A stretch of DNA of 38,614 nucleotides from assembly GCA_039801285.1 (NCBI GenBank), contig JBDRUJ010000001.1, positions 1 through 38,614 on the forward strand. Direction: 5' to 3'. The notes under the pieces were generated by a model, which was not told where the DNA came from, searched no databases, and saw only the letters and a program-made list of their open reading frames with translations. Source of the DNA: a candidate division WOR-3 bacterium. Its GTDB lineage: Bacteria > Hydrothermota > Tepidihabitantia > Tepidihabitantales > Tepidihabitantaceae. A program made the translations under genes and the position numbers. This document shows positions 5,218 through 29,019 of the stretch, piece after piece. Numbering within the stretch: the stretch's first letter is position 1; every line of letters starts with the position of its first letter.

Positions 5218-5362
5218 TTTAAGTCCGGGCCTTGTCAGGGCTGAGGTAATAATCTGTTTACGGGTCAGGCCCCTGAAGGAGTTGAAATTATGTCCAAATG
5301 AGCCAATGGATAAATACCAGAATTATAAGAACTTGGGCAAATCTGATATAATAATTCCAAGC

Positions 5363-5390
5363 TTGACAGCAGGCAGTTTTTCGGTATTGT
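5363..5390 (+). promoter_or_regulatory. Sigma70-type promoter candidate for the 16S rRNA gene
   Basis: TTGACA at 5363-5368, a 16-nt spacer, and TATTGT at 5385-5390. It lies in an AT-rich stretch about 90 nt upstream of the mature 16S 5' end. Confidence 0.4.
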
Positions 5391-5423
5391 AAAGTTACAG
5401 AGGTATCGCTCTTTGATAATTCG

Positions 5424-5477: not shown

Positions 5478-7021
<1,544 letters not shown>

Positions 7022-7485: not shown

Positions 7486-9249
7486 TCAGGGAATTATGAA
7501 TTCGCAGTAAAAGGTCTCGTCCGGTGACTCTAAAAGGGTAACTGCCACCACTCCTGATTCGTTTTTCCTCAAGATGTGGTACTTTGCCTCTTTACCCAGA
7601 AAATGACGTGGCAGGACAAACCTTCGGATTCTTTTGTCCTCAAGGTTCAGCCGGCAAACTACCGGCCAGCCTTCTTCAAGAAGTAGAACATAGCAAAGGT
7701 CCCGGGTGATAAGAAAGTCAACAATTCGTTGCCTAAAGTTGGCCCTGAAAGTTTCAAGTAGATAGCGCAACGGCTCCTTTGACCGGTCAATAGCAGGAAT
7801 TATCGGTGGGGGATTCTCGAAGACAGTAATTGAATCAGTCAGGACCAAATCCTGATTGTAGATGTGTATCTTTCCAGAGTACCTGTCGCTTGAATAATAA
7901 ACGCCACCGGAAATCCTCACGAATCCTTCGGACACAAGGTAGCCCAGCTTCAACTCCTCAAACCGCTTCTCCAGCCTGCCCAGAAACTGCACAAACTCGC
8001 CATCAAAGTTGAAAACAGCAAACTGATGGACATTTTGCTGGTAGAATTCGTCGGTGAACGGATTTCCCTCCTTCGCGGCGTTATCATCAAGCAACTGACT
8101 TCCTGCGGGCCAGCCCTTGTGAAACGGTAAAAAGACTTTCTGGTTTCTGGAGTCAAAGGATGCGCCGATGTGAGAGAACCCCCCAAAGACGGAGTCGGGG
8201 AACGATTGAAAGCGAGCGCAACTCATTGGCTTGTTGTCAAGAATGTGTTTCCTGATGAGGACAGGCACATTATGATACCCAAAGTTCGTGTCTTCGCCTG
8301 TTACTTCCGTTACAACCTTCGGTAAAGAGGCAGTGATTATCAATGTGGTGTCATTACAGAAATCGTGGCTGAAGTACATCGAGTTTAACACATTGTTTTG
8401 CCTTAGAATCTGGTAAACCATTACCGGCACTTTGACAAACATCATCTCTTCGCTTGAGTCAGGGAAGAGTACATTGACCAATCTGCCGGTGGCCAGGTCA
8501 AAGATGTAAATATAGTAGGTCATATGGTCCATCAATGAAAGGTAGGTACCGGAAGGGCTGACGTTTATGTAGTATGTAGTTGACAATGGATACTCTTCGG
8601 TGTCATAAAGTTTCAACATTTTCTGGCATACCGGTTTATACCTCGCTCCCTTTATCCTCGCCTTTGAGGCTGGCGCTTGTGGTCTCCTTCTGCTCTTTGG
8701 TTTGGAGAGGTCGGATATGAAAGCGGCAACGGTTGATGAATCTATTACTCCATCTGTTGAGTAAGAGGCAAGCAGTTCGCCACTTCGGACAGAGAACTTG
8801 GTGACAAAGGGCACTTCAAGAATACCGGCAGAGAGTTCAAAGGAGTTCAAAAACTTTTCATTGGTAACTATGCTGTAATCGCTTTCAAAGTTCCTTCTCT
8901 TGAGATACCTTTCTGCGGCCCGTTTTTTGTTGGACACTGCCAGAAGGATTACGTCCTCCTTCACCCCCTGCTTACGCAGGTAGTGGATAAAGGGATTGAT
9001 TGTCCCCTCAATTCTTGCCGCAACCATCGGCGGGACGATAAACACATAAATCGTATCCGATTTATAGCGGATATTCAGGCCTTTGAAGAACCGGGCAATA
9101 GTTTTATGGCTGTTCTCAATCTGATGTAGCTGGTGAAGTTTTCTTTCCCACGCTATCTGGGAAAGGCAGCATGCGAAGAGGGTTACAAGCAGAACAAAGA
9201 GCGGAAGGAGAAAACCCCTTCCGCTCCTTGACTTTGGCGACAGTGTCAC
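7486..9249 (-). CDS. Hypothetical membrane-anchored protein of the low-G+C islet; N-terminal TM helix, and the C-terminal two-thirds may be a beta-propeller
   Basis: 587-aa ORF with a GTG start overlapping the upstream stop (GTGA). The N-terminus GRGFLLPLFVLLVTLFACCL is hydrophobic. I cannot assign a family from motifs alone, and the resemblance to Bacteroidota 6-bladed propeller lipoproteins is only an impression. Base composition is clearly lower in G+C than the flanks. Confidence 0.65.
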   Translation of the reverse strand: MTLSPKSRSGRGFLLPLFVLLVTLFACCLSQIAWERKLHQLHQIENSHKTIARFFKGLNIRYKSDTIYVFIVPPMVAARIEGTINPFIHYLRKQGVKEDVILLAVSNKKRAAERYLKRRNFESDYSIVTNEKFLNSFELSAGILEVPFVTKFSVRSGELLASYSTDGVIDSSTVAAFISDLSKPKSRRRPQAPASKARIKGARYKPVCQKMLKLYDTEEYPLSTTYYINVSPSGTYLSLMDHMTYYIYIFDLATGRLVNVLFPDSSEEMMFVKVPVMVYQILRQNNVLNSMYFSHDFCNDTTLIITASLPKVVTEVTGEDTNFGYHNVPVLIRKHILDNKPMSCARFQSFPDSVFGGFSHIGASFDSRNQKVFLPFHKGWPAGSQLLDDNAAKEGNPFTDEFYQQNVHQFAVFNFDGEFVQFLGRLEKRFEELKLGYLVSEGFVRISGGVYYSSDRYSGKIHIYNQDLVLTDSITVFENPPPIIPAIDRSKEPLRYLLETFRANFRQRIVDFLITRDLCYVLLLEEGWPVVCRLNLEDKRIRRFVLPRHFLGKEAKYHILRKNESGVVAVTLLESPDETFYCEFIIP

Positions 9250-9590
9250 TCTATCGGCTCTAGGCTCTCAAGCTGAAGGTCTGAGCCTTGCATTCCGGTA
9301 AGACCATCAGGTATCGGTTCGGCTAGAAGAGCTTGGTATTTATTGCTAGAAAAAGCGTCCTCAACCACTCCCTCGCTCGCATTGTAATCCTCGATTTCAA
9401 TCGTTGCGCAGAGTGCAGGGTCCTGCTGAGGACAGACTGCCGGAGGGATTATTTGGATGCCGCCCTTCCCATAGATTTTGACGACTATCTTCGCATTCGC
9501 GGTCAACGGCAGTAGCACGAGTATGAGAAATACCGCATAGAGTAACGTCCGGTCCGCTAGCGCATTGTTCTGTCTGCTATATATAGGCAT
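9246..9590 (-). CDS. Small secreted hypothetical protein (114 aa), first gene of the low-G+C islet
   Basis: ATG at 9590 is preceded by AAAGGAG. It has a signal-peptide-like segment (LLYAVFLILVLLPLTANA) and two Cys in the mature part. It is translationally coupled to the 587-aa ORF. Confidence 0.55.
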   Translation of the reverse strand: MPIYSRQNNALADRTLLYAVFLILVLLPLTANAKIVVKIYGKGGIQIIPPAVCPQQDPALCATIEIEDYNASEGVVEDAFSSNKYQALLAEPIPDGLTGMQGSDLQLESLEPIE

Positions 9591-9635
9591 GCTTTACTCC
9601 TTTCGCAGCCAGAGTCCATGCTCTAACTGCGTGCC

Positions 9636-9669
9636 ATTATACTCTCTCTCTCTCTCTCTCTCTTGTCAA
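9636..9669 (-). promoter_or_regulatory. Consensus -35/-10 promoter with a dinucleotide-repeat spacer (phase-variation candidate)
   Basis: On the minus strand: TTGACA (9669-9664), a 22-nt spacer made entirely of (AG)11 (9663-9642), and TATAAT (9641-9636). It lies 45 nt upstream of the ATG at 9590. Confidence 0.55.
9642..9663. repeat. (CT)11 / (AG)11 microsatellite
   Basis: Direct count from the sequence: 22 nt of perfectly alternating C and T at 9642-9663. Confidence 0.95.
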
Positions 9670-10026
9670 GAAAAAAACTATTTCTGTTCCAAGAGATTGC
9701 TGGGGACGCTTCTCGGTTTTTTGTCTTCTGTCCGGCAACTTACTGGGCCGGTTCATTCATCACACTCGAATCCTACCCCGTCCTCTCCTTAGTGTCAGAC
9801 CATCCTATATTTGTTTCAAAACACCGTTCCCAGAGTGTGGCGATATTGAGTGCCGGTAGCAAGTCCCCAGTCCTGAAAGCGGCAGGAAGCTGCCGTACTC
9901 CAAAATCACGCCTCAGGGTGGTAACGAACGATTGACCACATACCAGAGTGTCCTGCGTCAAGCGGTCACCTCGGGTGAAATGAAGGACAATCATCAATTA
10001 GAATCCTTTGGAGTTACATTTCCCAA

Positions 10027-10663: not shown

Positions 10664-11629
10664 CTACCGACACTGCCCGGCGCCGGGCTGGTCTTTGATA
10701 TAGACGTTGGTTTCGAGGTACTGATGGAAGTCGGTCCACTTGATGCCCGGGTGCTTCTCGACCACCTCCCGGAACATCATCACTCGTGAGTCAAGGTTGT
10801 CCAGAGCATAGACGATGAAGGCCTCGACAAACTTTGGCGTCTTGGGCGAGCCGAACTCGAGATGGCCGTGATGGCTGAGGATGATGTGCAAAAGCATCCG
10901 GGCCAGCTCCTCGGGGAAGTCTTTACTTGCGGCGATTTTCTCCTTGACCATCTCGTAGCCGAGGACGATGTGGCCGATGAGCCGGCCATCCAGAGTGTGG
11001 TCAATGGCAACATCATAGCAGTATTCCTTTATCTTGCCGACATCGTGGAGAATTACACCGGTCATGAGCAGGTCGCGGTCAATCTCAGGATAGGTGGCGG
11101 CAACCGACCGGGCAAGGCGGCACATGAAGAGGGTGTGCTCCAAGAGTCCGCTGAGGTAATCGTGGTGAACCTGCGCGCCACCCGGAGCCATTGAGAAGCG
11201 CTCGACAAACCGGGTATCGTCAAAGAAGGCGGTAAGCAGCTGGAGGAGATTGGGATTTTTGACCTCGGCGATGTAATTGCGCAGTTCGGCCAGCATCTCC
11301 TTGGGGTCAAAACGGCTGGCGGTAAGAAAGTCATCGCGGGAGAGCTCGGACTTGTCGGCCGGCCAGATGAGGCTGATATTAAGCTGAGGGTTGCCTTGAT
11401 AGTCGCCAACTCTGCCCTGAACATGATAGAAGCCGCCGGTTTCAACACAGGCCAGGGCATCCTCAATCCGTTCCCAGATGATGGCGTTGATGGTTCCGGT
11501 CCTGTCCTTGAGCTCCAGGGTCAGAAACTGGCCGCCGTCGCGCCTTTCTTTTACATCGCGCCGGGTACAGAGGAAGATGTCGTTGACCAGGACTCCGACC
11601 TTGAGGTCTTTGACGAACTGACGCTTCAT
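10664..11629 (-). CDS. OB-fold plus HD-domain 3'-5' exoribonuclease, YhaM-like
   Basis: 321-aa ORF. The N-terminal OB-fold-like segment is VGVLVNDIFLCTRRDVKERRDGGQFLTLELKDRTGTINAII. The HD motifs are LLEHTL...ILHDVGKI...LSHHG. Confidence 0.75.
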   Translation of the reverse strand: MKRQFVKDLKVGVLVNDIFLCTRRDVKERRDGGQFLTLELKDRTGTINAIIWERIEDALACVETGGFYHVQGRVGDYQGNPQLNISLIWPADKSELSRDDFLTASRFDPKEMLAELRNYIAEVKNPNLLQLLTAFFDDTRFVERFSMAPGGAQVHHDYLSGLLEHTLFMCRLARSVAATYPEIDRDLLMTGVILHDVGKIKEYCYDVAIDHTLDGRLIGHIVLGYEMVKEKIAASKDFPEELARMLLHIILSHHGHLEFGSPKTPKFVEAFIVYALDNLDSRVMMFREVVEKHPGIKWTDFHQYLETNVYIKDQPGAGQCR

Positions 11630-12609: not shown

Positions 12610-12637
12610 TTGACAGTGCGGCGCGTTGCCTTAGAAT
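12610..12637 (+). promoter_or_regulatory. Sigma70-type promoter candidate for the yebC-ruvCAB operon
   Basis: TTGACA at 12610-12615, a 16-nt spacer, and TAGAAT at 12632-12637, about 80 nt upstream of yebC. Confidence 0.4.
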
Positions 12638-27810: not shown

Positions 27811-27838
27811 ATAATAGCGTTGGCTATCCTCCTGTCAA
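27811..27838 (-). promoter_or_regulatory. Sigma70-type promoter candidate for the disrupted secreted-protein gene
   Basis: On the minus strand: TTGACA (27838-27833), a 16-nt spacer, and TATTAT (27816-27811). Confidence 0.35.
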
Positions 27839-27963: not shown

Positions 27964-29019
27964 TCACCCCGTTTTGGCGAAGTGGTGATTTGCGCCAGCC
28001 TCCCGGGCCGCCGTCACAAATGCCCTGATGTTTTCGGCCGGTGTCTCAATCGGCACCTCGCAGCCGGTCGCTGCCACGAACCCTTTGGGGCAGGCTTTCC
28101 CGATTGCTGTCATCCGTCCAACATCGTCTGCCACCTCCTGTGGTGTCCCAAGCCACAGTCCGGTAGTGTCAAGATTGCCGATAATCCGGCACCGGTCTCC
28201 AACCTTGGCTATCGCTTCGGCAAGTCCGATGCGGTCAATGCTCAGAAGGTCTGCACCGCTGTCGGCCATAAGTTCAATCGGAGCGGTTGTGTCGCCGCAG
28301 ATGTGGAGAATTACATCCAGGTCGTAGCGGTGCAGGAATCTGATGACCGCCTGCTCATAGGGCAGGGCAAACTGCCGGTAGTCTTCCGGAGAGATGACAC
28401 TGCCCGATGCCAGGGGGTCAACGAGAATCGGCAGGGCACCGGCATCAATCATCGCCCGGCAGAATGTTATTACCGAGCGGGTAACAAACTCCAGCAGCCG
28501 CTTGACATCATCAGGCCTTTCCACGAGGCCTAGGAGAAATGTCTCAGGGTCAACCAGTTGCTGGGCGGTGGTGAAGGGCGCGGGGATGTAGGCGAGGATG
28601 GGCACGGTGTCGGCCCGGGCCTCATAGGCGCAGCGCGCTGCCGCCCAATAGACCGGGAGCCTGCCATCGCGCATCGGGTTGATGATACCAGCCAGCGGCT
28701 CCGAGCCGTCGGGCAACTCGCGCCACCTGGGCCGAGAGAGGACCGGCAGCTCGTCCTCAGGATATTCAAACCGGGAGCCCAGCGCCTCGGCAACGATGCC
28801 CACCTCGGAAAAGAGCGAGATGAAATCGGTTCCGAACCGCTCCTGGGCCTGGAGTTGACAGCGGGCCATCACTATGCCGTCGGTATAATAATCCCGCAGG
28901 TTGGCGCCGGTAAGACGGGCTGCGGCCGCGGTCAACAGCGGAAAGACCGGGCAGCGGTCCTGCGGCTCATCCATCACCAGAAGGCCGAACCGCTCCCTGG
29001 GGGTCAGGAGGTCCTTCAT
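27964..29019 (-). CDS. URO-D-family (MtaA/MtbA-like) corrinoid methyltransferase, paralogue 2
   Basis: 351-aa ORF with URO-D-fold length. It has the H-x-C...C zinc-ligand pattern of MtaA-type enzymes (ILHICGDTT ... VAATGCEVP). It overlaps the upstream gene by 4 nt. Confidence 0.8.
   Translation of the reverse strand: MKDLLTPRERFGLLVMDEPQDRCPVFPLLTAAAARLTGANLRDYYTDGIVMARCQLQAQERFGTDFISLFSEVGIVAEALGSRFEYPEDELPVLSRPRWRELPDGSEPLAGIINPMRDGRLPVYWAAARCAYEARADTVPILAYIPAPFTTAQQLVDPETFLLGLVERPDDVKRLLEFVTRSVITFCRAMIDAGALPILVDPLASGSVISPEDYRQFALPYEQAVIRFLHRYDLDVILHICGDTTAPIELMADSGADLLSIDRIGLAEAIAKVGDRCRIIGNLDTTGLWLGTPQEVADDVGRMTAIGKACPKGFVAATGCEVPIETPAENIRAFVTAAREAGANHHFAKTG

Follow-up and report, generated by a model that had tools for sequence, protein, structure and literature searches.

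The stretch of DNA analysed here, referred to as the window, comprises 38,614 nucleotides of contig JBDRUJ010000001.1 (assembly GCA_039801285.1) from a candidate division WOR-3 bacterium. It carries on its minus strand a two-gene operon, coding for proteins of 114 and 587 residues, and the subject of this work is the promoter in front of that operon, in which perfect TTGACA and TATAAT hexamers enclose a spacer composed entirely of AG units. A preliminary description of the window had reported this arrangement, TTGACA-(AG)11-TATAAT, together with an open reading frame (ORF) for a 114-residue protein of the secreted type, the ATG of which lies 45 nt from TATAAT. Anatomy, coordinates, distance and ORF are all confirmed on the minus strand, with the ATG at position 9590. 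In the direction of transcription, the features of the locus are:

9670–9681, minus strand: T-rich block atagtttttttc, abutting the −35 hexamer on its upstream side; a putative UP-like element
9664–9669, minus strand: −35 hexamer TTGACA, perfect consensus
9642–9663, minus strand: (AG)11, AGAGAGAGAGAGAGAGAGAGAG, the entire 22-nt promoter spacer and its length-variable part
9636–9641, minus strand: −10 hexamer TATAAT, perfect consensus, followed by GGCA
9604–9631, minus strand: stem-loop CGCAGTTAGAG / CTCTGGCTGCG in the 5′ untranslated region (UTR), 11 bp with a 6-nt loop, starting about at the predicted transcription start
9597–9603, minus strand: Shine-Dalgarno region AAAGGAG (GGAG at 9600–9597), 6 nt 5′ of the ATG
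9246–9590, minus strand: 114-residue ORF, a signal peptide (...LPLTANA/K) and a small two-cysteine mature protein ending ...ESLEPIE
9195–9230, minus strand: 16-bp stem-loop followed by a U-rich run, within codons ~8–20 of the 587-residue ORF, scored as terminator-like
7486–9249, minus strand: 587-residue ORF, an N-terminal membrane helix, a thioredoxin-like domain and a six-bladed NHL-type β-propeller

The AG tract is the sole dinucleotide array found in the window by Tandem Repeats Finder (period 2, 11.0 copies, 100% matches), and matches to (AG)5, of which 0.10 would be expected, occur only within it. Its 11 perfect units exceed the length of five units given as the threshold for slippage-prone dinucleotide repeats (PMC2651432), and by inspection the tract is also a 22-bp perfect homopurine mirror repeat. 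The choice of the −10 hexamer is anchored by the 5′-UTR hairpin, because the latter begins about where a transcript from this hexamer would start. A correctly spaced alternative −35 hexamer in the window allele was considered and rejected, since the hexamer 17 nt 5′ of TATAAT is AAGAGA, which matches the consensus at three of six positions and has no TTG. A second −35-like hexamer is represented in the window only by the weak CTTGGAACA, about 23 nt upstream. Also 5′ of the AG promoter is a weak CTGACA-17-TAGGAT site (9798–9770).

A scan for TTGACA and a downstream −10 hexamer matching the consensus at five or more of six positions covered the window together with 18 related, non-redundant WOR-3 loci, and all 10 promoters found other than those of the operon have a spacer of 16 or 17 nt. 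In the window, the promoter of a tRNA-Val gene (2636–2663) is a perfect TTGACA-16-TATAAT, and further consensus-like promoters with 16-nt spacers have their −35 hexamers at 12610 (plus strand) and 27833–27838 (minus strand). Because these other promoters keep both the canonical consensus and the canonical spacing, a 22-nt spacer is abnormal for this phylum. The earlier observation that the consensus-like promoters of the window have 16–17-nt spacers is borne out with one exception. The pattern TTGACA-N14–26-TATAAT occurs three times in the window, against 0.00 expected from 100 dinucleotide-preserving shuffles, and the third perfect pair (28855–28889, plus strand) has a 23-nt spacer and lies antisense inside a minus-strand gene (27964–29019). 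This pair is either a chance occurrence or an antisense promoter, and is treated as unrelated to the AG promoter. The idea it might prompt, that this organism normally has long spacers, was rejected on account of its antisense position within a gene and the 16–17-nt spacers of all other promoters. The window also contains the 16S rRNA gene (5478–7021), for which the likely promoter is TTGACA-16-TATTGT at 5363–5395 (plus strand), about 85 nt 5′ of the 16S start. Two more TATAAT hexamers, at 5322–5327 (minus strand) and 5347–5352 (plus strand), are found in the same leader, which is low in guanine plus cytosine (G+C).

Orthologous promoters and their spacers

A set of 47 loci (designated by L numbers below) was assembled from protein-alignment scans of genome and metagenome collections and from homologue look-ups; the alignment used in the locus search was a 10-sequence subset, the 34-sequence alignment being too divergent. 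About 19 distinct WOR-3 lineages or paralogous copies carry the operon, and nearly all of them have kept the promoter as a module with a fixed order: T-rich block, TTGAC[A/G], spacer, −10-like hexamer, 3–6 nt, stem-loop, GAAAGGAG and ATG. The −35 hexamer is TTGACA in almost every module, the deviations being TTGACG in L023/L024 and TTGACT in L002, and the −10-like hexamer is always found 3–6 nt 5′ of the conserved UTR hairpin. An [A/G]TTTTTC block adjoins TTGACA in L001, L007, L012/L029, L027, L035 and L037, and the Shine-Dalgarno region GAAAGGAG is conserved among the orthologues. The two proteins of the window itself occur on one contig only in the collection, and exact-sequence look-ups of both returned no contig. 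The spacers are as follows:

Window: (AG)11, 22 nt
L027, the closest relative (69% and 84% protein identity): (AG)9, 18 nt, as TTGACA-(AG)9-TATAAT
L042–44: (AG)10, 20 nt
L045: (AG)10, 20 nt
L035/36: (AG)9AT, 20 nt
L004: (AG)9AC, 20 nt
L009: AGAGAA(AG)5AC, 18 nt
L013/15/16: (GA)9C, 19 nt
L023/24: (GA)8G after TTGACG, 17 nt
L037: (AG)7, 14 nt
L006/26: GC(AG)5AA, 14 nt
L028 copy a: purine-rich, 12 nt
L028 copy b: purine-rich, 20 nt
L029 copy 1: partly decayed AG tract, 22 nt
L029 copy 2, before an unrelated 199-residue gene: (AG)4AA, 10 nt
L007: decayed purine tract, 21 nt (or 18 nt to an overlapping TATTAT)
L017: (AG)4TTTAT, 13 nt
L041: (AG)5TTTAT, 15 nt
L008: AA(TAG)3, 11 nt
L001: no repeat, 16 nt
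L003 (low G+C), three tandem paralogous operons at 1601, 3898 and 5862: A9, A7 and A8
L002 (low G+C), 5′ of the small ORF: T9
L005 and L039, paralogues that lack the small ORF: repeat-free promoter, 17 nt

Across the approximately 19 lineages and paralogues, spacer length thus varies between 10 and 22 nt, with hardly any change in the two hexamers. Most spacers are AG repeats, from (AG)4 to (AG)10 outside the window, with poly-A or poly-T in the lineages of low G+C, and the purine fraction of the non-template strand is 0.69–1.0 in the module spacers compared with 0.35–0.69 in other promoters. In 274 kb of fetched WOR-3 DNA, all 22 tracts of at least five AG units on the operon strand directly follow this TTGAC hexamer, and a 23rd is the same promoter tract, cut by the contig end of L038.

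Comparison of related metagenome-assembled genomes (MAGs) shows that near-identical genomes can differ at the orthologous spacer by whole AG units. Over 1200 bp at 99.75% identity, L017 and L041 are separated by a single indel, an AG unit gained or lost in the spacer. Between L004 and L009 (95.4% identity), a one-unit difference is accompanied by an interrupting G-to-A change, and the window and L027 share the same architecture and are exactly two AG units apart. Whole-unit differences between strains or populations are therefore present in three pairs. The preliminary description had predicted that loss of two units from the window allele would give an 18-nt spacer close to the ideal, and since L027 carries TTGACA-(AG)9-TATAAT, this allele exists in nature.

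The first position of L038, a 47.8-kb MAG contig (JBNAUT010000010.1), falls within the AG tract, which reads (AG)6 there and (AG)7 in the sister assembly L037; length heterogeneity could have broken the assembly at this point. In L029 (5652–5735; also in L012 and L030–L033), the whole promoter and UTR module has been duplicated together with ~100 nt of upstream DNA, and the duplicate fronts an unrelated 199-residue membrane-anchored protein. The duplicated copies of L029 and L032 differ by a 2-nt GA indel within the Shine-Dalgarno region (GTGAGAGGAG versus GTGAGGAG). A second TTGACA-like hexamer (TTGACA, TTGACC, TTGATA or TTGAAA) is located 14–15 bp 5′ of the −35 hexamer in L006, L007, L012/L029, L028 and L037, and this direct repeat could be a regulator site or a tandem docking site for RNA polymerase. 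That it restores the spacing in short-spacer lineages was rejected, as it lies 25–37 nt from the −10 hexamer. When IMG/VR viral contigs were scanned for TTGACA(AG)7, the single match was L046 (IMGVR_UViG_3300036851_000339; 11410–11429, minus strand), which is unrelated to the WOR-3 operon and has TTGACA-(AG)8-TAACAT with a perfect hairpin and then a run of T behind it.

In some lineages the small ORF is disrupted, by an in-frame TAA (L006/L026), a frameshift near a T6 run (L008/L025), a lost start together with a deletion (L037), or an ATG-to-GCG change (L009). Three lineages with a broken small ORF have a spacer of at most 14 nt (L006, L008 and L037), compared with one (L009) in which it is at least 16 nt, which suggests, from the sequences, that collapsed spacers accompany loss of function of the first cistron.

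Products and transcript structures of the operon

The stop codon of the 114-residue ORF overlaps the GTG start of the 587-residue ORF (GTGA). Both proteins are annotated as hypothetical in NCBI (candidate division WOR-3 MAG), and neither gave a match in sequence searches of Pfam, NCBIfam and PDB. Homologues of the small protein include P0036 (84% identity) and P0037 (59%); its two cysteines are conserved, and orthologous small ORFs are present in most lineages. For the 587-residue protein, 34 homologues at 40–69% identity were found, and all those with an informative source name are from WOR-3. An AlphaFold (AF2) model of this protein (pLDDT 87.9) consists of an N-terminal helix, a thioredoxin-like α/β domain and a six-bladed propeller, and Foldseek matched it to NHL domains, to the thioredoxin-plus-NHL protein NHLRC2 (6gc1) and to the Bacteroides exported protein BF0058 (4raa). 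Given the signal peptide of the small protein and the N-terminal membrane helix of the large one, both are predicted to leave the cytoplasm; in predicted localisation, both ORFs correspond to the surface or exported products of contingency loci.

In the window, the operon is flanked upstream by rsmG (GidB), a gene for an HD/OB-fold protein and a gene for a 300-residue protein that has no Pfam hit, and downstream by the 16S rRNA gene. The neighbours are different in every lineage, and the operon is therefore a self-contained unit with its own promoter. The preliminary description had called it a low-G+C islet. As a statement on composition this stands, the operon having 47% G+C compared with 59% in the flanks, but a recent foreign insertion was rejected, since the operon is conserved across WOR-3 (40–69% protein identity) and is below its flanks in G+C in 16 of the 16 loci compared. 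Low G+C is therefore a property of the gene family and not a sign of recent import.

The 5′-UTR hairpin of the window has a minimum free energy of −20.5 kcal/mol (z = −3.2). Across 14 lineages 89% of cells are paired, compared with 28–40% in slid controls; compensatory changes are found at five of nine pairs, and the observed covariation score was reached by none of 500 shuffles. The hairpin may be a 5′-terminal stabiliser of the mRNA or a regulatory element. The GGCA that follows the −10 hexamer (9635–9632) can also pair with UGCC (9589–9586), which comprises the last two bases of the AUG and the next two.

The stem-loop at 9195–9230 recurs in almost every lineage, at least 12 in all, as an equivalent strong stem of differing sequence (10–19 bp, codons ~8–22) that occupies the same place. 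It was found in the window and in L001, L002, L004, L013, L017, L024, L027, L028, L029, L037 and L045, with a GGAG-rich 5′ arm, a CUCC-rich 3′ arm and often a U-rich run behind it. We infer that attenuation, termination or processing at this element may determine how much of the small protein is made relative to the large one. In L013, a (TC)6 tract in the coding region was considered as a frameshift switch and rejected, since the tract is the 3′ arm of this conserved intracistronic stem-loop.

Readings of the variable spacer

With moderate confidence, we favour the reading that the module is a slippage-tunable promoter of the σ70 type that serves a conserved WOR-3 operon, and that the window holds an allele in a weak state. 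Replication slippage would add or remove 2-nt units in the hypermutable (AG)n spacer, and each change would alter the distance as well as the rotational phase between the −35 and −10 hexamers and in this way set promoter strength. Transcripts would start at the foot of the conserved 5′-terminal hairpin, just upstream of the ribosome-binding site. With n = 11, the spacer of the window allele is 4–6 nt over the 16–18 nt that this organism uses elsewhere; expression from it is therefore most likely weak or low, and the 18-nt allele of the closest relative could be reached by the loss of two units. The promoter would then behave as a dial with 2-nt steps, on which the L027 allele would be near optimal by the E. 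coli standard. We infer that expression depends on repeat length, that alleles switch often and reversibly within a population, and that selection for mutability preserves the tract. The predicted export of both products supports this reading by analogy, exported proteins being the usual cargo of contingency loci.

A yardstick is provided by consensus promoters in E. coli, which are strong with spacers of 15–19 nt, significantly lower but still moderate at 20–23 nt, and lower still, though above background, below 15 nt (PMC8695583). Judged by these data, the 22-nt allele of the window would be weak rather than dead. The preliminary description had assigned it to an OFF or low state; a weak or low state is indeed most likely, but OFF is probably too strong a term in view of the moderate activity at 20–23 nt in E. 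coli (PMC8695583).

Several points weigh against a slippage-tunable promoter. By the same analogy, the effect may be graded rather than on/off. The commonest length among the long pure tracts is not 17–18 nt but 20 nt, the value in four independent lineages. Perfect TTGACA and TATAAT hexamers are kept by several lineages in which the spacer measures 10–15 nt and contains only (AG)4–5; such lineages are unlikely to slip back to 17 nt, and the perfect hexamers are therefore hard to explain if TTGACA is nothing but a distance-dependent −35 element. Tract length is identical in L042–44, three assemblies of one strain with no mismatches in 3600 nt, and L013, L015 and L016 all have (GA)9 although they are 1.3–4.3% diverged. 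Since assembly consensus sequences represent only the majority allele, these constant lengths limit the slippage argument but do not refute it. To our knowledge, the RNA polymerase of WOR-3 has never been studied.

An alternative that we regard as unlikely, though deserving of weight, is that the purine tract is itself a functional cis-element, either as the site of a GA-tract factor or through H-DNA or a change of twist that responds to supercoiling, temperature or pH. The tract would then make up for the excess length of a ~20-nt spacer, in the way that MerR acts at promoters with spacers of 19–20 bp, the length polymorphism would be incidental, and the promoter would be regulated rather than stochastic. 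The four independent lineages at 20 nt and the constant length between samples 1.3–4.3% diverged fit this proposal, as does the second TTGACA-like hexamer 14–15 bp upstream in several lineages, which suggests protein binding. The ability of homopurine mirror repeats to form H-DNA (PMC11667243) also counts in its favour. The non-template strand remains purine-rich (0.69–1.0) even where the repeat has decayed, but decay by A-to-G and G-to-A transitions keeps the purine content without any selection. Poly-A or poly-T replaces AG in the lineages of low G+C, which points to a requirement for any slippery tract rather than for a specific GA site. Furthermore, lengths from 10 to 22 nt cannot all suit one binding or structural geometry, and (AG)4–5 is too short for H-DNA.

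The comparison with MerR can be taken further. Promoters of the MerR family have overlong 19–20-bp spacers (PMC11049809). They share with the WOR-3 promoter near-consensus hexamers and a spacer too long for efficient initiation, and four of the WOR-3 lineages have exactly 20 nt. However, MerR operators are dyad-symmetric and adjoin the merR gene, whereas the WOR-3 spacer is without dyad symmetry and not fixed in length. A MerR-type overlong-spacer promoter was rejected, as the 22 nt of pure AG contain no inverted repeat, the orthologous spacers range from 10 to 22 nt, and there is no MerR-family gene in the neighbourhood; the missing dyad and the missing adjacent gene tell equally against a cis-element of this kind.

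It is quite unlikely, in our view, that the tract is a neutral, self-perpetuating microsatellite in front of a promoter that relies mainly on its perfect −10 hexamer and is near-constitutive at any spacer length, with no switching at all. The nearly flat spread of lengths from 10 to 22 nt with intact hexamers does look like unconstrained spacing, and E. coli consensus promoters with spacers of 12–23 nt are all above background (PMC8695583). Nevertheless, a dispensable TTGACA would not remain perfect across lineages at 40–69% protein identity, and pure dinucleotide tracts of 7–11 units, which should decay unless maintained, are found nowhere else in the 274 kb. The strictly 16–17-nt spacers of the other promoters in the same DNA, and the broken first ORF that accompanies the short spacers of L006, L008 and L037, are also at odds with neutrality.

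A related proposal, which we hold to be improbable, is that the repeat-filled spacer is more than a counter for slippage, namely an ancient promoter design that selection has maintained throughout the phylum. With its homopurine tract, such a promoter could function or be regulated at non-canonical spacings, among them the 20 nt most common in long tracts, by means of an unusual DNA conformation or a GA-binding factor. If so, the tract, the 5′-terminal hairpin and the stem-loop in the second cistron would constitute an undescribed three-part expression cassette. Finally, an artefact of MAG assembly or polishing is extremely improbable as the source of the tract or its length: short-read assemblers can mis-size low-complexity tracts, and the L038 contig ends in the tract, but 22 nt lie well inside a single read, and the recurrence of the same architecture in more than 15 independent assemblies from different pipelines (NCBI, JGI and Logan) excludes it in practice.

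Comparison with known systems and significance

The closest known system is the hifA/hifB promoter region of Haemophilus influenzae, where a (TA)9–11 tract between the promoters alters the −35/−10 spacing (van Ham 1993; Geluk 1998, as summarised in PMC2651432). In both systems a dinucleotide repeat separates the −35 and −10 hexamers, so that each unit gained or lost alters the spacing and with it, at hif, expression, and the cargo is exported or surface-located. Some hifA copies carry mononucleotide tracts instead (PMC2651432), which resembles the A7–9 and T9 tracts of low-G+C WOR-3. The repeat unit in WOR-3 is the homopurine AG rather than TA, and there is a single promoter where hif has two that overlap and diverge. 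WOR-3 is an uncultivated environmental phylum, whereas H. influenzae is a host-adapted pathogen, and the repeat site is conserved at 40–69% protein identity, far deeper than the strain-level variation of hif. Switching in WOR-3 is a prediction from sequence.

In the porA promoter of Neisseria meningitidis, a poly-G tract gives graded, ‘volume-control’ expression (PMC3639595). As in the WOR-3 module, the repeat is part of the core promoter; the several expression levels at porA, in place of pure on/off control, are what the E. coli data would predict for WOR-3 spacers of 18, 20 and 22 nt. The porA tract is a homopolymer that changes in 1-nt steps in a pathogen, whereas the WOR-3 tract is a dinucleotide repeat with 2-nt steps. 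Similar homopolymer tracts are found in the promoter spacers of opc and fetA. Among the mycoplasmas, vlp of M. hyorhinis has a poly(A) spacer, and vlhA of M. gallisepticum has, upstream of its −35 hexamer, a (GAA)n tract that permits activity with 12 units and no other number, perhaps through DNA structure or a binding protein. The vlp and vlhA genes form multigene families that serve antigenic variation. They have in common with WOR-3 a dependence of the promoter on repeat length, which in WOR-3 is a proposal, and products that are exported, in WOR-3 by prediction; GAA is likewise homopurine. The WOR-3 repeat, in contrast, is placed between the boxes and heads one conserved operon, sometimes with two or three paralogues.

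At H. influenzae hmw1A, a heptanucleotide repeat is combined with a 5′-UTR hairpin that is processed by RNase III (PMC12721329). The two systems are alike in having a repeat upstream of the gene together with a conserved, structured 5′ UTR, which at hmw1A contributes to the control of expression. In that gene the transcribed repeat supplies one arm of the hairpin, whereas in WOR-3 the repeat is 5′ of the −10 hexamer, presumably untranscribed, and separate from the hairpin. When the literature was searched for AG, GA or CT repeats in the spacers of bacterial promoters, the papers retrieved all concerned plants or animals; no report of an AG repeat at such a site was found, and none on WOR-3. 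New in the present case are the AG repeat unit, the free-living host from a candidate phylum, and the deep conservation of a mutable tract that is coupled to a 5′-terminal hairpin.

Most known cases of promoter switching by repeats come from pathogens and commensals adapted to a host (such as Haemophilus, Neisseria, Mycoplasma and Campylobacter), in which it usually varies from one strain to another. In WOR-3, a candidate phylum that is free-living and uncultivated, the same design heads an operon for proteins predicted to be exported, and a slippery tract persists at one promoter position down to 40–50% protein identity, the type of repeat shifting with genome G+C. Should expression depend on repeat number, environmental bacteria would have maintained contingency loci as a strategy of ancient origin, perhaps because phages or predators exert pressure on a surface protein. 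The state of a population could then be read simply from metagenomic reads piled up over the tract, and the alleles that nature provides, with spacers of 10–22 nt, would offer a ready test of the rules that govern spacer length in an unstudied polymerase.

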